A DNA stretch of 64,000 nt, from contig OY762721.1 of NCBI GenBank assembly GCA_963666345.1, forward strand, positions 2,272,001 through 2,336,000, written 5' to 3'. Under the pieces are notes generated by a model that saw only the letters and a list, made by a program, of their open reading frames with translations, was not told the origin of the DNA and made no database searches. Positions 1,709 to 12,466 of the stretch are shown in pieces. The position numbers and the translations under genes were made by a program. The DNA is from Desulfatiglandales bacterium (GTDB taxonomy: Bacteria > Desulfobacterota > DSM-4660 > Desulfatiglandales > Desulfatiglandaceae). How positions within the stretch are numbered: the stretch's first letter is position 1; each line of letters opens with the position of its first letter.

Positions 1709-3288
1709 TACAGTTCAATCTTTTTTACATTGAATACATTTTCCATACCCCTGAGCTGGTCGAGTAATTCTTCGCTGGCCTGGGTGCTGGTGTTTAAAAA
1801 TATAATATTCTGTTTTTTCTCTTTTTCTTCTCCGACCTGCATTCGTTTTATGTTTATTCCGTTTTTCCCCAGGGTGGTTCCTATCTGTCCTATGGCCCCG
1901 GGCTGATCATGATTGTGTATGAGCAGATTATGGCCCTCCGGAATGGCCTCCAGATAAAAATTGTTTATTCTCAATATCCTGGGCATATTTTTCCCGAAAA
2001 TTGTGCCTGAAATGATGTTTTCGTTCTCCAGGGTCTTTACGTTTATTTTTATCAGGCTTGAAAAATTTTCCGATGTCTCGCTTTTGGATTCAATAACCTT
2101 GATGCCTCTTTCGGCCGCGATAAAAGGGGCGTTTACAAAGTTTACGTCATCCTTGAGGATCGGTGTCAAAAGACCCTTGAGCATTGCGATAGTGAGAGGT
2201 TTTACATCATACCTGGTAACCACGCCCGAGTAGGCTATTTGAACCTCCAGTATGGCGCTGTCCGCAAGCTGGGTGTGCATTGATCCCATGCGCTCCATAA
2301 GCGTGACATAGGGATGAAGGGTATTCATGAGCTCGGAACTTATGCTCGGGACATTTACCGCGTTTTTGACGGTGCCGTGAAGCAGATAGGCCACGATCTG
2401 ATTGGCCACGTCTTCCGCGACATTGTCCTGGGCCTCTGCGGTCGATGCTCCAAGGTGGGGGGTGCATATGAAATTGGACAGGGACAGCAACCTGTTTTCA
2501 ACAGGAGGTTCCTTTATGAAGACGTCAAGGGCGGCGCCTCCAATTTGACCCGATTCCAGCGCATCGTAAAGATCGTCTTCATTCACGATGCCCCCTCGGG
2601 CACAGTTTATCAACATGGCCCCTTTTTTCATCCTTTCAAAACTTTTTTTGTTGAACATGTCGGCTGTTTCATCGGTCTTGGGGGTATGGATGGTTATGAA
2701 ATCGGATCTTTCGAGCAGCTCTTCAAAGGAGACCGGCTCAAGGTCCAGTTTTTCTATGGTATCAGGCTTTATATATGGATCAAATACTATTACCTTTAGC
2801 TTAAGACCCTTTGCGCGATCAGCCACGATTCGTCCGATATGTCCCGCGCCGACAAGGCCCAATGTCTTATTGAAAAGCTCACGACCCTTGAGCTTCTTCT
2901 TTTCCCATTTACCCTTCTTGAGCGATATGGTCGCCTGAGGTATGTTCCTGCACAGGGCCATAAGCATGGCAACGGCATGCTCCGCGGTCGTGATGGTATT
3001 TCCCTCAGGGGTATTCATTACGACTATCCCCCTCTGGCTTGCTGCGGGGATATCGACATTATCGAGTCCTATTCCTGCGCGACCGATTACCTTCAGATTT
3101 TTTGCCGCCGAGATTATATCGGAAGTGACCTTTGTGGCGCTTCGAATGACAAGTCCGTCATAGGGCTCAATGATCTCTTTCAGCTCCTGAGCCGTTAAAC
3201 CTGTATTGACGTCCAGTTCAATGCCGGGTGCGTCCTGAAAGATCTTGATTCCAACATCTGATAACGGATCGCTTATTAGGACCTTCAT
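1708..3288 (-). CDS. serA: D-3-phosphoglycerate dehydrogenase (ASB and ACT domains)
   Basis: MKVLISD start after AAGGAG SD; GRAGIGLDNVD, INCARGGIV, TPHLGASTAEAQ; C-terminal ACT domain (DQPGAIGQIG). Confidence 0.96.
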   Translation of the reverse strand: MKVLISDPLSDVGIKIFQDAPGIELDVNTGLTAQELKEIIEPYDGLVIRSATKVTSDIISAAKNLKVIGRAGIGLDNVDIPAASQRGIVVMNTPEGNTITTAEHAVAMLMALCRNIPQATISLKKGKWEKKKLKGRELFNKTLGLVGAGHIGRIVADRAKGLKLKVIVFDPYIKPDTIEKLDLEPVSFEELLERSDFITIHTPKTDETADMFNKKSFERMKKGAMLINCARGGIVNEDDLYDALESGQIGGAALDVFIKEPPVENRLLSLSNFICTPHLGASTAEAQDNVAEDVANQIVAYLLHGTVKNAVNVPSISSELMNTLHPYVTLMERMGSMHTQLADSAILEVQIAYSGVVTRYDVKPLTIAMLKGLLTPILKDDVNFVNAPFIAAERGIKVIESKSETSENFSSLIKINVKTLENENIISGTIFGKNMPRILRINNFYLEAIPEGHNLLIHNHDQPGAIGQIGTTLGKNGINIKRMQVGEEKEKKQNIIFLNTSTQASEELLDQLRGMENVFNVKKIEL

Positions 3289-3369
3289 AATTTTCTCCTT
3301 ACTTTTGGTTTTCAGTTTGGTTTTAGGGAACCAAAAATTTAACTTTTTCTCCAACTCTGTTTCAGAGAA

Positions 3370-3533
3370 GGTTTCAAGGACCCGAGGAATCGAGGAGTCA
3401 AGGGAATAAAAAACAGATCTTCTTACTTATAAAAGCGAATCTTAAATCCTTAGAGAATTGTCAAACCTTAAGCTCTTTGTAATGCTGCACAGCATGTCAC
3501 TTGAACCCTCGAATCCTTGATCCCCTGGACCCT
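3370..3533 (-). mobile_element. miniature element A: inverted octamer-repeat arms enclosing a decayed four-helix-bundle gene 5' fragment
   Basis: Arm 3370-3401 GGTTTCAA GGACCCGA GGAATCGA GGAGTCAA; arm 3501-3532 TTGAACCC TCGAATCC TTGATCCC CTGGACCC; minus-strand interior ATG CTG (TG) CAG CAT TAC AAA GAG CTT AAG GTT TGA CAA = M-L-Q-H-Y-K-E-L-K-V-*-Q. Confidence 0.7.
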
Positions 3534-3621
3534 ATGGCTCCCCACCTCCCCCATTAAGTCGATCCATCTATTAAGCACAGCTAATCAACAGATAATCATA
3601 AACTCACAACAATGACAGCAA

Positions 3622-3649
3622 ATTCTATCCAACGACCGGATTTTGTCAA
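3622..3649 (-). promoter_or_regulatory. putative sigma70 promoter of serA
   Basis: Minus strand TTGACA-N16-TAGAAT. Confidence 0.55.
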
Positions 3650-3762
3650 GCTGGATCTAAAACTTATTGTCCGGTTTTCTCAGTCCCACTGCCCCTTTGC
3701 CTTTGTATTGCAGCGCCTTTTTTATTGAGATAAAATTGATAATAACCATATATTTTATAGCT

Positions 3763-3817
3763 AAACATATATTTGGCATAGTATATGTTTGACATTTATG
3801 GTTTTAATCTTTAATCT
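3763..3817 (+). promoter_or_regulatory. putative operator overlapping the sigma70 promoter of the FadL-type gene
   Basis: Perfect IR AAACATATA-N10-TATATGTTT (3763-3790) overlapping TTGACA(3789)-N17-TAATCT(3812). Confidence 0.5.
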
Positions 3818-3960
3818 TTTTTCATAAAATATCTGCCTGCCCTCATCTCCAGCTGTTCCAGCCTGAACGAGATTTCCTCTTCCGAGGGCTGTCCCCTGAA
3901 AAAATTATCGGAAGTTCTATTCGTCTTTTCATAACCGTATCCTTTAGGAGGAGGTGTCAA

Positions 3961-5217
3961 ATGAAAAAAATCTTTGCGTTATTGTGTATGGTAGGTCTGG
4001 TTTTTCTCTTAACAGCACCACTTCTTGCAGGCGGAATAGATAACAAGCACAACTTCAGCGCGGAATATATCAGGACCCTTAACAGAAACGCCGCTGTCGA
4101 TTCCGCAGACGCGGTGGTCTATAACCCGGCAGGCGTCATGCAGATGGAAAACGGTTTTTATCTCAATTTCACGGGACAGTACGCGGCAAAGGACTATTCA
4201 AATACCTTCGGCGGCATGGAGTATGACAGTGATACGCCTGATATAGTCCCGAGCCTGTTCGCCCTTTACAAGAAGGACAAATGGGCCGGTTTTGCAGCCT
4301 TTACAATCCCTGTTGGCGGGGGCGCGGTGGAGTATGAAAAGGGCTCGGCAACCACCACCGCCCTTGCTACAAGTATAATAGCAGGCTCTCTAGGTGCTTA
4401 TACATTCCCGATTCTGGGTCAGTTTATGGAGGGAGAATCATATTATTACGGCTTAACCGTGGGAGGGGCATACGCCATAAACGATATGGTGTCTGTTTCC
4501 CTGGGATTGCGTTATTCCGACGCCAACATAGAGAGAAGCGGGTATGCCAGAATTACGGGGGCTGGGCCTCCTCCAGATAGAACATTTCGAATAGACTACG
4601 AAGAGACAGGAGACGGTATTTGCGGAATAATTGGATTAAATCTGAAGTTGTCCGGCAGGTTTAATATAGGAATCAGATATGAAACCAGCACGAGCCTTAC
4701 CCTTGAAACAAAGGAAAGCATAGATGATCCGGGAATAATTGCTAACGGGTCAAAAAGGGAAAGGGATATCCCCGGCATTCTCGGCCTGGGCCTTGGCTTC
4801 CAGGTAACGCCTAAACTATATGCCACCGCCACTTATACCTTGTACCAGAACGGGGGCGCTGACTGGGATGACATAGCCATATCAGGTGGTAACGAGGCGC
4901 TTAAGAAGAACGGCTACGACATAGGACTTGCCTTTGAGTATGCCTTTAGACCCACTTTGAGGGGTAGTTTCGGGGTACTGTATACTGAGACAGGTATAGA
5001 GCCTGATAACATGAGCAAAGAGGCACCCGAGCTTGACGCGGTAACCGTTGCGGGCGGTATCGCCTACGACGTAAGCCAAAGGATGACCTTAAATTTCGGT
5101 GTGCTCAAGACCTTTTACCAGGATGAGACCACAACGATCGCTCCTCTTATCCCGACTCCGGTAAAACTGGAAAAAGACGTGATGATTCTGTCGGCTGGGA
5201 TACAGTACAGGTTCTAG
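3961..5217 (+). CDS. OmpP1/FadL/TodX-family outer-membrane transporter
   Basis: Signal peptide; RNAAVDSADAVVYNPAG N-terminal motif; beta-strand pattern; C-terminal YRF; strong SD GGAGGAGGT. Confidence 0.88.
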   Translation: MKKIFALLCMVGLVFLLTAPLLAGGIDNKHNFSAEYIRTLNRNAAVDSADAVVYNPAGVMQMENGFYLNFTGQYAAKDYSNTFGGMEYDSDTPDIVPSLFALYKKDKWAGFAAFTIPVGGGAVEYEKGSATTTALATSIIAGSLGAYTFPILGQFMEGESYYYGLTVGGAYAINDMVSVSLGLRYSDANIERSGYARITGAGPPPDRTFRIDYEETGDGICGIIGLNLKLSGRFNIGIRYETSTSLTLETKESIDDPGIIANGSKRERDIPGILGLGLGFQVTPKLYATATYTLYQNGGADWDDIAISGGNEALKKNGYDIGLAFEYAFRPTLRGSFGVLYTETGIEPDNMSKEAPELDAVTVAGGIAYDVSQRMTLNFGVLKTFYQDETTTIAPLIPTPVKLEKDVMILSAGIQYRF

Positions 5218-5246
5218 TAACTTAAATCATTTGTTAAGCACGATAT

Positions 5247-5282
5247 GAAAGGGGCCCTTATTTGGGGCCCCTTTCTTGATTA
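5247..5282 (+). terminator. rho-independent terminator
   Basis: GAAAGGGGCCC-N7-GGGCCCCTTTC followed by TTGATT. Confidence 0.8.
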
Positions 5283-5304
5283 ATTTGTAAGGAGTTATAA
5301 AATT

Positions 5305-5497
5305 CAGGCCGCCAAACCAAAAAGTTCTCCCGGGGAGAAGGCTGGCAATTCTTGAGGAATGAGGCGTAGTTTTGAAGTACGTCGCAATGATTCACCCTGC
5401 TCAATCGACTAGGCCGTCTCGCGCAGCGAGAATTGAACAGGGCGAGGATACAGCATAATCCCGCCCCCGATGCGTGACAGTCGGGCTTAAGCCATCA
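5305..5497. repeat. composite hairpin-rich intergenic element (nested MITE/REP-like)
   Basis: Stacked IRs: TTCTCC/GGAGAA, GGCGTA/TACGTC, CCCTGCTCAAT/ATTGAACAGGG enclosing TCTCGC-GCA-GCGAGA, CCCGA/TCGGG; ends shared with 1650-1708. Confidence 0.5.
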
Positions 5498-5520
5498 AGA
5501 ATGCTCAATAGATGGCACAA

Positions 5521-5553
5521 ATAGAAAAGGGCCTTAAAAAGACCCTTTTCTAT
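5521..5553. terminator. terminator-like hairpin for the minus-strand FG-GAP gene (possibly bidirectional)
   Basis: ATAGAAAAGGG-N11-CCCTTTTCTAT perfect 11-bp IR. Confidence 0.65.
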
Positions 5554-5593
5554 TTGTCCTTATCTCTTTCAGACAGCCTTCTGCCTGCACTTT

Positions 5594-7231
5594 TTATTCA
5601 AACCATAATATGCGGCCCGATCCCTCACCTATGTTGTCGAATTTGGGGTTTGTTGCGGCAAGAAATATGGTCTTTCCCCTTGCCTGAATGTCGGTAATAC
5701 AGTAGGGAAGCTCCCTTGTCTTCCAGGCCGGTGTCATGTTCGTGCCCTCTGACTTAAATGCCGTGAGAGTGGACTTGCTATGAAATACCATTCCTCCCAG
5801 CACTTCTGAAAGGGGTATGTTGTCCACCGCCAGCACATCCGCCTTTTCATCGCCGTCGATGTCGGTGATTACCACCCCGCTGTCAAAGGCTATCCTGGGC
5901 TGGGCATCACCGGGGCCTTCGGGCTGACCCAGACGGATCGCGTTGTTGGTCCCACCCATTTTGATACCGCCCTTCCAGAGGACGTTTCCCTCCGCGTCCC
6001 AGACATATAGCCTCGAACCCTTGCCGAGGCCGATCCATTCATACACGCCGTCCTTGTCGAGGTCGGCCCGGTTGAGGGTGTAAAAAATGGCCCTTTTAAG
6101 TTCCGGAAGCTCCTTTGCCTTGGAAAGGCCCCCTTTTACGTCGAATTCCATCTCAAAGATGGGACCTGTGAGGAAATTGTCCACCTTCGAGTTCTGGTAG
6201 ATAAGCAAAGCGGAGCCTGATTTGCCCGACTTGATGGCTCTTAGGTGTCCCGCCTTATCAGTGAGCTTTTTGAATTTGCCTCTCCACTCATAGACGGTAG
6301 TATTGGCCCTGAGCCCGTAACGGGCCACGATAAAGATCTCGGCTCTTCCGCTGCCGTTGGTATCTCCCGCGCTTACCTTGAGGAAATCTTCACCCACGGA
6401 GGATGAAAGGCTGTCTTTTATGGCATAGGTCATGCCGCTTTTTGAATATATGAGCAGTTTCTTCCTTGAGCAGACAAGAAGCTCGTCTTTTCCGTCCCCG
6501 TCAAGGTCTGCCGCGTCAAAGGCAAGGGGGGAGATGTTGACGGGAACGCTTCCTGTCGGTTTGAATCCCTGGTATTCCTGGTATGCCTGATAAAAAAGCC
6601 CCTTTTCCGTGGTAGCGGCACCTGAAAACTCACTTCTGAAGGGAGAAAAAAGTCCTTTTGCGTTCTGAGGAAGATCGGGCCCCTGCGGCGCGCGCGCGGC
6701 GTACGCAGTGGGGGCCGGAAGAGGTCTTCCCTCGATAACGGCCCGCACCTGATAGGCCACATCGGCAAGCTTGGGTATGAAGCTGTTTTCGTCTCCCGCC
6801 TGGGAAAGCCTTTCAACGGGCGCGCCCTCCTTAGTAAGATCAAGCACCGCAAGATCAAGGCTGTATCCCGTGCCCGCAGCCGTAATGCTTCCGAATACCG
6901 CGTAGTCCGCGGCAAGCCTTTCGCATGCCTTTACCGCCTTATCCTTGGAATCTATGACCTCATCCCCTGTGACGGACAGGACCTCTTTTTCCGCGATTAT
7001 ATCAAGACCCCCGCCTGAAAGCCTTGAACTCAGCATGCTCTTGACTCCCTGTTGCAGGTAATCAAGCGGCTTGCCTGAATAGATGGCAAGGGGAAAAAGC
7101 GCGAGCCTTTTATCGGCAGCCCGGGCATTATCCGTAACAGTGCCCAGGGTCAGAAGAAAGGCGAAGGCCGTAAAAATGAAGATCTTTGCGAAACTAATCG
7201 TTTTTTTAAAAAAGGGGGTGGTCATAATCAT
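5594..7231 (-). CDS. exported FG-GAP/VCBS-repeat protein with an N-terminal TolB-N/CsgG-like domain
   Basis: Signal peptide; N-domain RLALFPL...LAADYAVFGSIT; DLDGDGKDEL, DTNGSGRAEI, DLDKDGVYEW, DIDGDEKADV repeats. Confidence 0.75.
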   Translation of the reverse strand: MIMTTPFFKKTISFAKIFIFTAFAFLLTLGTVTDNARAADKRLALFPLAIYSGKPLDYLQQGVKSMLSSRLSGGGLDIIAEKEVLSVTGDEVIDSKDKAVKACERLAADYAVFGSITAAGTGYSLDLAVLDLTKEGAPVERLSQAGDENSFIPKLADVAYQVRAVIEGRPLPAPTAYAARAPQGPDLPQNAKGLFSPFRSEFSGAATTEKGLFYQAYQEYQGFKPTGSVPVNISPLAFDAADLDGDGKDELLVCSRKKLLIYSKSGMTYAIKDSLSSSVGEDFLKVSAGDTNGSGRAEIFIVARYGLRANTTVYEWRGKFKKLTDKAGHLRAIKSGKSGSALLIYQNSKVDNFLTGPIFEMEFDVKGGLSKAKELPELKRAIFYTLNRADLDKDGVYEWIGLGKGSRLYVWDAEGNVLWKGGIKMGGTNNAIRLGQPEGPGDAQPRIAFDSGVVITDIDGDEKADVLAVDNIPLSEVLGGMVFHSKSTLTAFKSEGTNMTPAWKTRELPYCITDIQARGKTIFLAATNPKFDNIGEGSGRILWFE

Positions 7232-7345
7232 AGTCTCTTTTGTAAGGTTTATTACTGAAATAAGGCACGTCTATAAAAAAATGAACACAACAGTAACAGT
7301 ATCTTGCCTCAGTGTAAATCCGGTTTAAACTTTTTACAAGCCCTT

Positions 7346-7377
7346 TAAAAAAGAACCCGGGGCCATAGGCCCCGGGT
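7346..7377 (-). terminator. rho-independent terminator of the porin gene
   Basis: ACCCGGGGCC-ATA-GGCCCCGGGT followed on the minus strand by a T-tract. Confidence 0.85.
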
Positions 7378-7411
7378 CCATTTAATGATCAGACACTAAA
7401 TCCGGCAGGAT

Positions 7412-8545
7412 TTAGAAGTTGATCTGCCACTTTGCGCCAAAGTAGGTCAATTTACCCTGGTCTGCATCTACGCCGCCGACGGTGATGTCTTTGTCGTCAA
7501 CAACGCCGATTTCAGGAACGATGAAGCAGCCCTTTGCAAGGTTGATGGTGGCATTCAGATAGTAGGAAACGGTGGTATCGTCATTCTTCAGGACTGTGTC
7601 CAGCTCTGAGTTGGCATAACCGTAGCCGGCTTCGAATGTCAGCATGTCGTTTACCTTGAATCCTGCGACCAGGTTGAATCCCCAGTCATCAACGTCATTT
7701 TCCGCCCACAGGCCGGTTGTTGCATTGTAGAGCCTTACAGGAGCCCAGGCAGGATCATGCAGCCAGCCGTAGGCCGCAAAGTTCTGACCGAAGTTGATGG
7801 AACCGTTAAGAAAGATAGGACCGAATGTGGTCTTGGCAGTCGCACCGTAGACATAGGAGTCAATGCTGGTAGATGCCAGGTTGGCGGTAGCAGTGTTGAC
7901 TTCCTGGTCATAGGAGTGGTATCCGCCGAACACGGTCATTTTCACGGGACCGAACGCGAAAGCGTAGGATGCCTCGATGAGCGGGATGCTGTTGTCAGTA
8001 TCGGCAACAGTACCGGCAACCCATGTCGCGGCTGGATCTGCGGCATAACCGGGGGTATTCGGCTCTACCAGGGCGATCTTGAGTCCGCCCATGTGAAGGG
8101 CGATCTGTGCCTGACGAACGCGGCCTGAGGCGGCACCATAGAACAGCAGGTCGTTGTCACCGGCGAACACCTGGTTTGAAATCAGGTTAAAGCCGGGGGT
8201 GTAGGCCTTACCAATGAGAAGCTTGCCCGGGCCGAAGTTCCATGTTCCGTAAAGGAGCCTTACCCTTGCGGCTTCATGGGCACCCGTTGTCTGGTTTGTT
8301 ACGCCATACTCGAAACGGCCGTAGATGTCGCCGGCCTTTACATTTGCGCCGACCCTTGAGTTTCCCTGAAGATCCCATGTGGTAAGTCCGCTATCGTCCA
8401 GTACGGCACCTGGGTTGTCTGTGTCAGTCCAGAATGTGCTCATCCTGGCGCTTCCGTAGAAGTTCCATTCGGCAGCTGCCATTGCCGGCACTGAAAAGGC
8501 AACAACAAATGCTACTGCTGCAAGAATTGTAAACAGCTTTTTCAT
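7412..8545 (-). CDS. outer-membrane porin (beta-barrel)
   Basis: Signal peptide ending AMA; W-N-F-YGSARM start; alternating strands; C-terminal WQINF; AGGAGG SD; own terminator. Confidence 0.85.
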   Translation of the reverse strand: MKKLFTILAAVAFVVAFSVPAMAAAEWNFYGSARMSTFWTDTDNPGAVLDDSGLTTWDLQGNSRVGANVKAGDIYGRFEYGVTNQTTGAHEAARVRLLYGTWNFGPGKLLIGKAYTPGFNLISNQVFAGDNDLLFYGAASGRVRQAQIALHMGGLKIALVEPNTPGYAADPAATWVAGTVADTDNSIPLIEASYAFAFGPVKMTVFGGYHSYDQEVNTATANLASTSIDSYVYGATAKTTFGPIFLNGSINFGQNFAAYGWLHDPAWAPVRLYNATTGLWAENDVDDWGFNLVAGFKVNDMLTFEAGYGYANSELDTVLKNDDTTVSYYLNATINLAKGCFIVPEIGVVDDKDITVGGVDADQGKLTYFGAKWQINF

Positions 8546-8711
8546 TACTCTTTCCTCCTAAATGGTTTACGTTTAGTCAAATTAGTCAAAATACTCTTAA
8601 ATAAATGAAACTACTCGAATCCACCTCCTTTCACTTTTTATTGATCCGACTTAAAGACTTCTTCGAATCACAAATGCGAATACCATTGCACAATCAAAAA
8701 GTCAAGTGTTT

Positions 8712-8945
8712 TCATATCCGCCCTGCCCGGCTTATCTTGTCTCCCACGGTGGTGCCGCAGAACCTGCAGCGGTATTCATACTTATCGCCTTCAGGAAGCA
8801 CGAGAAGCAGGACTTTTGTGACAGGGACAGCGCGGCCGCAGTTCGGGCAGTAAAGCTCTGTGGCCTCAAGCTCCCTGAACTGCTCTTGCGCCTCCCGGGG
8901 ATCGTGGCGAGCGGATTGAAATGGGTTAAAAGAAAAATCGTTCAT
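8712..8945 (-). CDS. small zinc-ribbon protein
   Basis: 77 aa with CPNC...CRFC cysteine pairs. Confidence 0.7.
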   Translation of the reverse strand: MNDFSFNPFQSARHDPREAQEQFRELEATELYCPNCGRAVPVTKVLLLVLPEGDKYEYRCRFCGTTVGDKISRAGRI

Positions 8946-9180
8946 TGCTAAAAACCTTTTTCTTAGTCTGCCGTTTGGATTGATATTTCAGATAACTTTC
9001 TCTAAACTCTATTATAAGGTGTAGCAGTTATCATCTGGAAATCGCTCATTTCCTTATGGACGTCCTTATGATATAGGAAAAAGTTGTCTGGTTGCAAGAT
9101 TTTATGATGATAACTGACGCATGTTGTTTCTGGACTTATGGAGCTTTTTTTTGATCTAATACGATTTTGATTTTCTTAAA

Positions 9181-9219
9181 TTTAGATCACTTTAGTCATT
9201 TTAGGCACTTTAGTTCACT
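9181..9219 (-). repeat. solo arm of the nonamer repeat family (AAAGTGACT-like)
   Basis: Reverse complement AGTGAACT AAAGTGCCT AAAATGACT AAAGTGATCT AAA; same units as 10491 and 15592. Confidence 0.7.
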
Positions 9220-9237
9220 CAATAAGGGGAGCTTTCC

Positions 9238-9642
9238 ATGAAAATAATGCACATTGATCATATCGGCATAGCCGTAAGATCGATTAGCGAGGCGGGCCGA
9301 TTTTACACCGATATCCTGGGTCTTGATATCGAAGAGACAGAAGAGATTCCGGAGCAGAAGGTGAGGGTCGGATTCATCCCGATCAGGGACAGCGAGGTGG
9401 AACTGCTGGAATCGACAGAGCCTGGCGGACCGGTGGCCAGATATATCGATGCGAGGGGCGAAGGGGTTCAACACATTGCCTTCAGGGTCGAGGACCTTGA
9501 CGAGGCAATAAAAGAACTCAAGGAAAAAGGGGTTCGTATGATTGATCAGGAACCGAGAAAAGGCGCCGGCGGAGCCAGAATAGCCTTTATTCATCCGAAG
9601 GAGACCCGCGGGATCCTGGTCGAACTCTGTGAAAGGGAGTAA
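9238..9642 (+). CDS. mce: methylmalonyl-CoA epimerase
   Basis: IDHIGIAV, EQKVRVGF, GEGVQHIAFRV, IAFIHPK..GILVELCE (VOC fold with metal ligands). Confidence 0.93.
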   Translation: MKIMHIDHIGIAVRSISEAGRFYTDILGLDIEETEEIPEQKVRVGFIPIRDSEVELLESTEPGGPVARYIDARGEGVQHIAFRVEDLDEAIKELKEKGVRMIDQEPRKGAGGARIAFIHPKETRGILVELCERE

Positions 9643-9676
9643 AGAGGCTCTTAACCCAAAAAAATATGTCCTGATT

Positions 9677-9892
9677 CTAAAAACGGTAGGTTATCAATCC
9701 ATGGCTGGTATCATAGGGGGAAACGCTTACCTGTACTTTATCTCCTACCATGACCTTTATTCGATTTTTCTTCATCCTGCCGGAAAGCACACCCGTTACG
9801 GTGATGTTGTTATCACACTGGATTTGCATATTGCCTCCGCCCAATACCTTGACTACCGATCCCTCTAATTGGATAAGATCTTCCCTGCTCAA
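9677..9892 (-). CDS. infA: translation initiation factor IF-1
   Basis: MSREDLIQLEG...SGRMKKNRIKVMVGDKVQVSVSPYD...GLITYR; TTG start after GGAAAGGA. Confidence 0.92.
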   Translation of the reverse strand: MSREDLIQLEGSVVKVLGGGNMQIQCDNNITVTGVLSGRMKKNRIKVMVGDKVQVSVSPYDTSHGLITYRF

Positions 9893-9968
9893 AACAGTCC
9901 TTTCCAGGCAACGCGCCTTTTAAAATTGATTAAATGATTTGGCTCTTCCCCAAATTAGCTGGAGAAGA

Positions 9969-10190
9969 GGATTCAAGGACCCAAGAGGTCAAGGATTCGA
10001 GGGTTTATTTGAAAATCTTGTCCTTATTTTATATTCCTTTGACCAGAGTTCCTATAACTTACTCCGGAGCTTAAGATCCTTGTACTTTTTCAGCAGTTCA
10101 CTTGAACCCTTGAAACTGGGAACCCGCTGCGAAGCTGTGGGACTGAGCGAAGCGTAAGCGGAGCAAAGAATCCCCGGCCCCTTAGCCCCT
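9969..10190 (-). mobile_element. miniature element B: inverted octamer arms, decayed four-helix-bundle 5' fragment, and a nested 53-bp insertion
   Basis: Arm GGATTCAA GGACCCAA GAGGTCAA GGATTCGA (9969-10000); arm TTGAACCC TTGAA[insert]GAATCC CCGGCCCC TTAGCCCC; minus-strand interior from 10096 reads LLKKYKDLKLRSKL*ELWSKEYKIRTRFSNK. Confidence 0.7.
10109..10173 (+). repeat. 65-bp exact repeat, copy 1 (53-bp insert plus GAA duplication and flanks)
   Basis: Identical to 12357-12421. Confidence 0.9.
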
Positions 10191-10291
10191 AAAAAAGATC
10201 ATGTTGCTCAGTCCTGTTTAAGACCAATCAATCGAGAGAATATGATCCGATGCTTTTTTTGCCCGCGCAAAAAAGTTGATTTTAAGTGGGT

Positions 10292-10319
10292 AACATACCA
10301 TTTTATTACCCAATGTCAA
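10292..10319 (-). promoter_or_regulatory. putative sigma70 promoter of infA
   Basis: Minus strand TTGACA-N16-TATGTT with extended -10 TG. Confidence 0.45.
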
Positions 10320-10490
10320 TAAAATGAATGCAAAAAACCTGATTCGCCTTGGCTCTATCGAGCTTCACCGAGGTGAACAAAGAAAAGAAGCGGCCTTTTA
10401 TTTTGAAAAATAATGTTATAGGATCAGTTCATTATGGAACCTTGCCTTCTGGGCAAGGCAGGGGAAAACTGGTCTGCCTGGATGGATCAG

Positions 10491-10599
10491 AAGTGACTAA
10501 AGTGTCTAAAATTTAAAGTGCCTAAAATGGTGGAGTCGCTTCGCTCCGCTATCTTTAAAAACAGCAGAAATCCTTAACTTCTGGCACTATAGGCATCTT
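10491..10599 (+). repeat. nonamer-arm miniature element with a GGAGTCGCTTCGCTCC core
   Basis: AAGTGACT AAAGTGTCT AAAATTT AAAGTGCCT AAAATGGTGGAGTCGCTTCGCTCCGC ... degenerate inverted arm AACTT CTGGCACTA TAGGCATCT. Confidence 0.65.
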
Positions 10600-10676
10600 G
10601 ACACCAGGCCCTCTTTGCGGCTTTCACGGGGCTTAAGCTGAATTGAAGAAAAACCTTAATCTTTAGGACATCTGCC

Positions 10677-11279
10677 GTGTATAAGGAAGAACCTTTCATT
10701 TCAGATATATCAGGGGTCGTTTTAACGGGCGGCAAGAGCAGTCGTTACGGGACAAACAAGGCGTATGTAAAGATATCAGGCACGCCCATGATCCTTAAGG
10801 TCATCAAGGTGATGAGAGAGCTTTTCAGACATATCGTTCTTATCACAAATGACCCTGATGAATACGCATCTCTTGGTTTTGACATGTATGAAGATATTAT
10901 CAAGGGGTTAGGGCCCCTGGGCGGGATATACACCGCCCTTCTGTCGATTGAAGGAGGTGCCGGTTTTTTTACCGCCTGCGATATGCCGTTTATCAAAAAA
11001 GACCTGGTTGAATATATGCTTGAGGTGGGTTCAGGCTTTGACGCCGTGGTTCCGAGGGTTGAAGACAAGACCGAACCCCTTCATGCCATTTACACCAAGG
11101 CATGTATCCCGGCCATAAAAGAGGTAATTGATAACGGTGAGTTTCAAGTCAACAGGATTTATCCCATGATATCAGTTAGATACGTGGAAATGGAGGAGAT
11201 AGCCAGGTTTGATCCCGGCTTTAACTCCTTTTTCAACATAAACAGACCTGATGATTTAAGGAAGGTGATCGATCCATGA
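10677..11279 (+). CDS. mobA: molybdenum cofactor guanylyltransferase
   Basis: GVVLTGGKSSRYGTNKA, GPLGGIYTAL, ACDMPF, EPLHAIY, FFNINRPDD. Confidence 0.92.
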   Translation: MYKEEPFISDISGVVLTGGKSSRYGTNKAYVKISGTPMILKVIKVMRELFRHIVLITNDPDEYASLGFDMYEDIIKGLGPLGGIYTALLSIEGGAGFFTACDMPFIKKDLVEYMLEVGSGFDAVVPRVEDKTEPLHAIYTKACIPAIKEVIDNGEFQVNRIYPMISVRYVEMEEIARFDPGFNSFFNINRPDDLRKVIDP

Positions 11280-12347: not shown

Positions 12348-12438
12348 CACTTGGATCTTGAAACTGGGAACCCGCTGCGAAGCTGTGGGACTGAGCGAAG
12401 CGTAAGCGGAGCAAAGAATCCTTGGACCCTTGAACCCT
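12348..12438 (+). repeat. solo octamer arm containing copy 2 of the 65-bp repeat (12357-12421)
   Basis: CAC TTGGATC TTGAA[53 bp]GAATCC TTGGACCC TTGAACCC. Confidence 0.85.
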
Positions 12439-12466
12439 TTTACACAATGATGACAGGTCCTGCCGA

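Follow-up and report, generated by a model that had tools for sequence, protein, structure and literature searches.

A probable deletion derivative of an ISL3-ended, gene-carrying mobile element in the serA leader of a Desulfatiglandales bacterium

The serA leader and its insertion

The window (the whole stretch of 64,000 nucleotides analysed here) is part of a Desulfatiglandales genome of 4.16 Mb, available as a single contig (G000) and referred to below as the host genome. On the minus strand of the window lies serA, the gene for phosphoglycerate dehydrogenase, which scores 663.6 bits with TIGR01327 against a cut-off of 454 and starts at 3288. Upstream of this start is a repeat-rich segment, here called cassette A, that had initially been placed at 3370–3533. 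Alignment with the ends of its sister copies by MAFFT yields a wider element of 257 bp, whose 3′ end is at 3342 and whose 5′ end is at 3598. Its parts and its surroundings are listed in window coordinates:

1711..3288, minus strand: serA (phosphoglycerate dehydrogenase), downstream of the insertion; TIGR01327, E 2.2e-199
3334..3341, no strand: candidate left copy of the target duplication, AAAATTTA, identical at 5/8 positions to the right flank TAAACTCA
3342..3369, minus strand: decayed 3′ terminal inverted repeat with a small terminal hairpin, in gene orientation ...CTCTGAAACAGAGTTGGAGAAAAAGT
3370..3409, plus strand: octamer array of five GGNNNNRA units, the 3′ arm in gene orientation
3410..3454, minus strand: interior remnant whose homology is not clearly assignable; main site of gene loss
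3455..3500, minus strand: gene-start remnant of a four-helix-bundle (PF05635) gene
3501..3533, minus strand: octamer array of four units, the 5′ arm in gene orientation
3534..3574, minus strand: subterminal spacer from the 5′ end repeat to the 5′ arm, by positional alignment with the spacers of subfamilies F2 and F4
3575..3598, minus strand: decayed 5′ terminal inverted repeat, TGATTATCTGTTGATTAGCTGTGC against GGATCATCTCCCGATTAGTTGGTG in the family (MAFFT)
3599..3606, no strand: candidate right copy of the target duplication, TAAACTCA
3622..3649, minus strand: promoter-like site TTGACA-16-TAGAAT, directed through the cassette toward serA; 11/12 consensus positions

The promoter-like site is the best of seven found, against 1.9 expected. 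Because it runs from 3649 to 3622 toward a start codon at 3288, cassette A is located in the leader of serA, with the promoter-like site on one side and the start codon on the other, and it points the way serA does. Without 265 bp, that is the element and one 8-mer, TTGACA would stand about 96 nt from the start codon instead of 361 nt. By eye, a TTGACA-containing motif is found upstream of serA in five of six relatives, and in two relatives the box stands about 58–63 nt upstream of the gene. The same six, which belong to other genera and have serA genes 71–75% identical, carry no cassette upstream of serA when inspected by eye. The search for an empty site that the initial annotation had proposed thus led to upstream regions that lack the cassette but are not syntenic, and to no strict empty site. 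Any effect that the cassette may have on serA is presumptive.

Other inverted-repeat inserts occur in serA leaders of relatives: one (locus L005, genome G015) has the core GTCATTGCGAG...CTCGCAATGAC, and another (L003, G005) has opposed arrays of the CGAACGTCCAAC type. The serA spacer seems to collect such elements.

Arms, ends and gene remnant of cassette A

The plus strand carries the octamers GGTTTCAA, GGACCCGA, GGAATCGA and GGAGTCAA at 3370–3401, followed by a fifth unit, GGGAATAA, that ends at 3409; the minus strand reads GGGTCCAG, GGGATCAA, GGATTCGA and GGGTTCAA from 3532 to 3501. The inverted GG-x4-RA arms first described are real, then, with one unit more than had been counted; they also bracket a central segment as claimed, which measures 99 bp (3402–3500) rather than about 95. 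The strict pattern (GGNNNNRA)x3 has five matches in the window against 0.10 expected, four of them in the arms of cassette A and one at 9961, in a further cassette. An inverted-repeat search of the window delimits the arms as 3369–3405 and 3497–3533, 37 nt with 70% complementarity.

Outside the arms, at the distance expected from the family described below, sit the remnants of two end repeats. MAFFT aligns 3342–3369 onto the family 3′ end ...AGTTGGAGAAGAACC; 16 of 24 positions match in 3342–3365, which 16 of 1000 shuffles equal, and the 5′ remnant matches at 15 of 24 positions (36 of 1000 shuffles). Taken alone, each remnant would be only weakly significant. The 3′ part of the cassette is 70–74% identical to the 3′ ends of sister copies by blastn. 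The 8-mers that flank cassette A are identical at 5/8 positions, those of sister elements at 7–8/8.

Between the arms lies what appears to be the beginning of a gene. On the minus strand, inside the right arm, the sequence continues with GTGA and then ATG CTG (+2 nt) CAG CAT TAC AAA GAG CTT AAG GTT TGA CAA, which translates as M L, a 2-nt slip, and Q H Y K E L K V * Q, exactly the reading MLQHYKELKV*Q quoted initially. It aligns to the start of an intact copy, GTGAAATGCTTAAAAATTATAGAGAGTTAAACGTTTGGCAAAAA (M L K N Y R E L N V W Q K), which has a W codon at the place of the TGA, in keeping with the change proposed initially. The family junction of arm, GTGA and ATGCT is retained, and arm plus gene start match a copy at 3809701–3809774 of the host genome with 72% identity over 76 nt (blastn, E 2.6e-6). 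With the arms left out, the best local score of the interior is 19 against 14.2 +/- 1.7 for shuffles, and 10 of 500 shuffles reach it. The similarity to a four-helix-bundle gene start, which was to be set against shuffled controls, would thus be modest by itself and persuasive only in combination with its position.

Beyond the first ~45 nt the intact gene is matched only weakly. Most of its 360 nt have been lost here, and the ~12 codons that are left, with frameshift and stop, are too short to be scored against the PF05635 profile. The motif GxxRxxxSxxxNxxE, which is conserved in PF05635/TIGR02436 four-helix-bundle proteins according to the part of PMC3936711 that treats them, is present in the intact copy (...QIRRSAVSIPSNIAEG...), and the corresponding region is deleted here. 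Cassette A is a gene remnant and not a member protein. Full-length sister elements measure 480–600 bp, against 257 bp for cassette A.

A DNA contig of run X6, ~95% identical, joins position 3377 to 3527 via a shared GGACCC and so skips 149 bp; just 24 nt lie on the far side of the junction. At most, it hints weakly at one more deletion in a related population, or else it may reflect an assembly effect at the inverted repeat. Among the RNA contigs of the sequencing runs, none extends over cassette A.

A genome-wide family of armed PF05635 genes

The host genome contains 80 strict octamer arrays, mostly of the consensus GGRKYCRA. About 65 of them share the consensus of cassette A, and these are mostly found beside genes of PF05635, the family of the rRNA-IVS protein. 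Among the 41 matches to this family, 24 exceed the Pfam cut-off, and 17 of these 24 contain stop codons. An array lies at most 400 nt from 31 of the 41 matches, always with the plus form on the left and the minus form on the right, whichever strand the gene is on. Two genes with octamer arms are intact (3089145–3089459 and 2066743–2067057); they reach 136.1 and 129.9 bits, with E-values of 1.8e-39 and 1.5e-37, against a cut-off of 33.8. Intact genes between the same arms, which the initial annotation had asked for in the source genome and its relatives, are thus found in the source genome itself. By blastn, 62 loci of the host genome resemble a 481-bp reference element, many of them internally deleted.

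Since the same arms flank 31 of the 41 PF05635 matches, cassette A is an internally deleted relative of these arm-gene-arm cassettes. This agrees with the initial proposal of an internally deleted, non-autonomous copy of arm, gene and inverted arm, which is now backed by intact armed genes, deleted sisters and a shared junction.

Further intact PF05635 genes (2953963–2954283, 1631805–1632110, 1627755–1628045 and 2965270–2966566) are accompanied by inverted heptamer arrays, not octamers; the types seen beside them are GTRAYCR, CGGAACG and TTGNTGA. No ISL3-type ends were seen by eye in the flanks of these four genes.

The strand on which the arms would pair better differs among the elements. The duplex of the sense arms is the more stable one in 25 of 40 elements, and G-U pairs number 335/2400 in sense against 302/2381 in antisense, with subfamily F1 favouring sense and F2 antisense; the copies behind these figures are not independent.

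Terminal repeats, target duplications and recent movement

Flanks aligned in gene orientation begin with a common 5′ end, GGATCATCTCCAAAAGAGTTGG..., and close with a common 3′ end, ...CCAACTAAGTTGGAGAAGAACC, the two being mutually inverted. A systematic scan of the host genome returned 49 end-repeat pairs with at least 7/8 matching flank bases, and the 42 with family-like ends were kept. These 42 elements of 105–603 bp have the terminal inverted repeats GGATCATCTCC... and ...GGAGAAGAACC outside their arms, with the consensus GG(A/T)TC(A/T)TCTCC, and are flanked by 8-bp target duplications, 27 perfect and 15 at 7/8. A looser scan found 309 pairs, 29 of which agree at 7–8/8; with a shift of 20 nt as control, no pair came above 6. 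A+T makes up 83% of the duplicated 8-mers, compared with 52% in the genome, and only three of the 42 elements lie inside long open frames, though such frames cover 84% of the genome. At the arm boundaries, no insertion signature was seen.

None of the 42 elements contains a transposase, and no pair with family-like ends is longer than 603 bp. The other seven of the 49 pairs, 0.8–3.9 kb long and with flanks agreeing at 7/8, were considered as an autonomous version; their ends are degenerate, and they were judged to be chance.

The family falls into four subfamilies, with ends and arms common to all:

F1: elements with the gene
F2: a pseudo-gene of reduced length (K H Y K D L K L L Q K S...)
F3: interior degenerate
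F4: interior likewise degenerate, shrinking to a minimal element of 105 bp

Two F3 copies, at 1465503–1465848 and 3006784–3007129, are identical at 346/346 positions, and their flanks are unrelated (74 and 90 of 300 positions identical). Movement of the family was therefore recent and in trans. In a third F3 copy, six tandem GGGGTCGA units make the difference, which indicates that the arrays grow by slippage. At 3121625–3121696, an F3 copy has GGATTCAA three times and then GGGGTCGA six times in its 5′ arm only; with such one-sided expansion, the complementarity of the arms is not strictly kept.

All these observations describe a family with the hallmarks of a MITE: its members are small (105–603 bp), lack a transposase, are dispersed over 62 loci and have terminal inverted repeats, of which cassette A keeps its remnants of 16/24 and 15/24 matching positions.

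The connection to ISL3

Which enzyme could move such elements? Ends that begin with GG and duplications of 8 bp are both characteristic of ISL3, and the cassette ends are, judging from their sequence, of the ISL3 type. Comparison of the host genome with itself for repeated IS elements identified three identical ISL3 elements of 1349 bp with an intact 422-aa ORF (PF01610, E 1.6e-72), the end repeat GGTTCATCCGGCAAATGCCGGGGT and perfect, A/T-rich 8-bp duplications. These resident elements and the cassettes have only the first eight terminal bases, GGTTCATC, in common.

A closer likeness emerged when the ends were inspected at 21 ISL3 transposase loci, the host's own copy and 20 from relatives. 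A related genome (G102) contains an ISL3 element of 1368 bp that ends in the repeat GGGTCTTCTCCCAATCGAGTGGG and is accompanied by an 8-bp duplication; 14 of its 15 outermost nt agree with the cassette end variant GGTTCTTCTCCCAATTAGTTGGG. No octamers were found in this element, which implies that the arms belong with the gene rather than with the IS. In genome G015, a transposase 58% identical to that of G102 belongs to an element whose ends diverge after 9–10 bases. The host genome has no match to the G102-type transposase at E <= 1e-80, only the three resident ISL3 copies, and no transposase-bearing IS with matching ends was found in it.

Most likely, then, the family would be moved in trans by some DDE transposase of the ISL3 family. 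Across 150 genomes (38 cassette-positive, 24 ISL3-positive), ISL3 transposases and cassettes co-occur in 9, compared with about 6 by chance, which is no real association; incomplete genomes such as these often miss IS elements.

Distribution in other genomes and replicons

Of 150 other genomes from the order, 38 contain matches to the element, and these represent three families. Under a strict end pattern, two of eleven copies fetched from relatives have perfect 8-bp duplications. No stops interrupt the encoded protein at 9 of 12 loci, with 64–73% amino-acid identity. A plasmid collection contained no plasmid-borne copy of the element; its coding core alone has matches there, on three Nostoc plasmids, annotated as 'four helix bundle protein'.

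Related debris in the window and other repeated elements

A second element, cassette B, occupies 308 bp of the window (9941–10248). It is decayed, has a minus-strand gene remnant (...Y K D L K L R S K L *) and both ISL3-type ends, and its flanking 8-mers AATGATTT and GATGCTTT agree at 6/8 positions. Its 5′ arm harbours a nested GC-rich module. At 12348–12448 of the window lies a truncated remnant: besides half an arm and the nested module, it comprises two octamers and the beginning of an end of the F4 type.

A module of ~60 nt (GGGAACCCGC...GGAGCAAAGAATCC), represented in the window at 10117–10176, is found within octamer arms on either side of the cassettes and with constant polarity relative to the arm. 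blastn matches it at 24 places in the genome over 40 nt or more, and verified elements contain 10 of these; it has no Rfam match; variants of its hairpin show compensatory changes (CTGC..GCAG vs CCCT..AGGG). It may represent a very small nested insertion with the arrays as its target. Window positions 10480–10600 contain the repeats GTGACTAAAGTG and GTGCCTAAAATG together with GGTGGAGTCGCTTCGCTCCGC; they resemble the flanks of the PF05635 gene at 1645777–1646064 and may be a third kind of cassette remnant.

Other repeated elements of the host genome are larger. One of 2.46 kb is present in 15 copies (e.g. 411615–414073) and encodes a 505-aa protein, which we take to be a putative IS21-type transposase. 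Two more have transposase-like ORFs, one of 1.89 kb in three copies and one of 1.53 kb in two.

Proposed origin of cassette A and alternative explanations

Cassette A is very probably a decayed, internally deleted copy of a non-autonomous element with ISL3 ends that was moved in trans. The complete element of ~480–600 bp would consist, from the outside inwards, of ISL3-type terminal inverted repeats, inverted GGRKYCRA arrays and one gene, whose predicted product is a four-helix-bundle protein of 120 amino acids belonging to the 23S-rRNA-IVS family (PF05635). Having no transposase of its own, the family would insert into A/T-rich intergenic DNA and duplicate 8 bp, most likely with the help of an ISL3-family DDE transposase acting in trans, as for MITEs and mobile insertion cassettes. 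One small non-autonomous copy would have entered the serA leader downstream of the promoter-like site, reading in the direction of serA and ahead of its start codon. It would subsequently have lost most of its gene, acquired a frameshift and a TGG to TGA change, and accumulated ~30–40% divergence in its end repeats, leaving the dead 257-bp copy at 3342–3598.

The initial annotation had suggested a mobile unit bounded by periodic repeats rather than by IS-type termini. On such a reading, arm, gene and arm would move as a unit delimited by the octamers, via an undescribed route such as an RNA-level intervening sequence or hairpin-guided recombination, and without an IS-type transposase. Some copies do fit such a unit. 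The armed genes at 2066743–2067057 of the host and at loci L024 and L025 have no ISL3-type ends visible by eye, nor do the heptamer-armed PF05635 subfamilies (2953963, 1631805, 1627755 and 2965270), and the ISL3 element of G102 is free of octamers, so that the arms are not derived from the IS. However, all 42 copies with a recognisable insertion signature have outer end repeats and 8-bp duplications, the two identical, recently moved copies have both as well, cassette A retains both remnants, and the arm boundaries carry no such signature. With ISL3-like ends and duplications located outside the arms, the boundary originally proposed does not hold, and we regard a unit limited by its octamers as improbable. 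The armed copies that lack ISL3-type ends suggest a related possibility: the arm-gene-arm core may be the older unit, with ISL3-type ends captured secondarily rather than belonging to it from the beginning.

Could the segment be a functional part of the serA leader in the first place, a regulatory hairpin or attenuator whose likeness to a repeat family is secondary? Its place between a promoter-like site with 11/12 consensus positions and the serA start, its orientation and its ability to fold with 15 consecutive pairs would suit such a role. Yet its folding energy is unexceptional against shuffles on both strands: the minus-strand hairpin has −57.9 kcal/mol (z −1.81, 10/200 shuffles as good) and the plus-strand hairpin −46.9 kcal/mol (z −1.88, 9/200). 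The segment is missing from the serA upstream regions of all six relatives, and a search of Rfam over window positions 3200–10700 gave no match to cassette A at E <= 1, only three weak matches elsewhere, far below gathering scores; four sister loci likewise match no Rfam family at E <= 1. Above all, it is homologous from end to end with a dispersed mobile family, which makes a primarily regulatory origin very improbable. The arms would presumably fold at the level of RNA or DNA.

That octamer periodicity and gene-like reading arose by chance in an A/T-poor spacer is practically negligible as an explanation: the coding remnant is short, which is all that speaks for it, while none of 100 shuffles reaches the strict triplet count of five and the genome contains about 65 arrays that share the consensus, mostly adjoining PF05635 genes.

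What the family implies

For the preferred reading, that of an ISL3-ended element moved in trans, the host genome would be a clean record of the gene-in-hairpin unit known from ORF-bearing rRNA intervening sequences in the act of transposition, comprising end repeats, 8-bp duplications, identical copies and a graded series of deletion derivatives with cassette A as one member. The findings point to ISL3, a named enzyme family that can be tested at the bench. Small genes of the PF05635 type are described in the relevant part of PMC3936711 as wedged inside operons and cas loci, and transposition would explain this placement. There are consequences for annotation, too: roughly 60 or more short, repeat-rich spacers of the host, the serA leader included, would be transposon debris and not regulatory sites.

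Comparison with known systems

Mobile insertion cassettes (MICs), such as MIC231 of IS231, are formed by IS ends around a passenger gene and have no transposase. The cassette family resembles them in its IS-type ends, its passenger gene and its lack of a transposase, and its deletion derivatives behave as MITEs. Unlike in MICs, the passenger is always the same four-helix-bundle gene, enclosed in a hairpin of periodic repeats, and dozens of copies exist, mostly as pseudogenes.

A close parallel among MITEs is a 187-nt element of Microcystis aeruginosa PCC 7806. In the sections of PMC11448079 that deal with it, the element is described as ISL3-derived with 8-nt duplications, which ISL3 elements themselves make, and its authors hold that an ISL3 transposase mobilises it in trans, which is also the proposal made here. 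Judging from this description, both families lack a transposase, share ISL3-like end starts, 8-nt duplications and stem-loop potential, and occur in many copies; the full-length members of the cassette family differ in carrying a conserved protein gene and, between it and the end repeats, inverted octamer arrays, and the end repeats themselves begin differently (GGCTCTTCG in Microcystis, GG(A/T)TC(A/T)TCTCC here). Short tandem repeats inside a MITE are likewise known from Porphyromonas gingivalis, where the portion of PMC4596501 concerned reports a single minisatellite, in contrast to the two opposed arrays that surround a gene here.

Among the openly accessible main texts covered, no paper ties the PF05635 gene family to MITEs, ISL3 or target duplications. 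The gene itself is familiar from intervening sequences (IVSs) of ribosomal RNA: the pertinent passages of PMC4990558 describe a 23S IVS of Coxiella burnetii with an S23p/PF05635 ORF and excision by RNase III, cite Leptospira and Salmonella likewise, and call the IVS selfish and of unclear origin, a long-standing idea being that it is a transposition remnant or was once mobile. On this description, the IVS and the cassettes have in common a gene for a protein of one family and, around it, complementary stretches able to pair in a long stem. They differ in that cassette A lies in an mRNA leader, that of serA, rather than in a 23S or 16S rRNA helix, and in that the passages concerned do not mention periodic octamers, ISL3-type ends or target duplications. 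The single 23S gene of the host (606500–609522) contains none of the listed element copies. This gene spans 3023 nt, roughly 100 bases more than the 2925 positions of the model.

A wider and speculative view, which we consider unlikely, would unite the S23p/IVP intervening sequences of rRNA and the arm-gene-arm cassettes found scattered through many phyla as a single class of transposon cargo. Its gene would sit in a periodic, wobble-tolerant hairpin that RNase III could excise from any host transcript, would be spread by borrowed ISL3 ends, and would encode a protein acting on the arms, in RNA or in a transposition complex; cassette A would then be the fossil of an insertion that removed itself at the RNA level. 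If so, excision by RNase III would make insertions in rRNA, leaders and operons tolerable.
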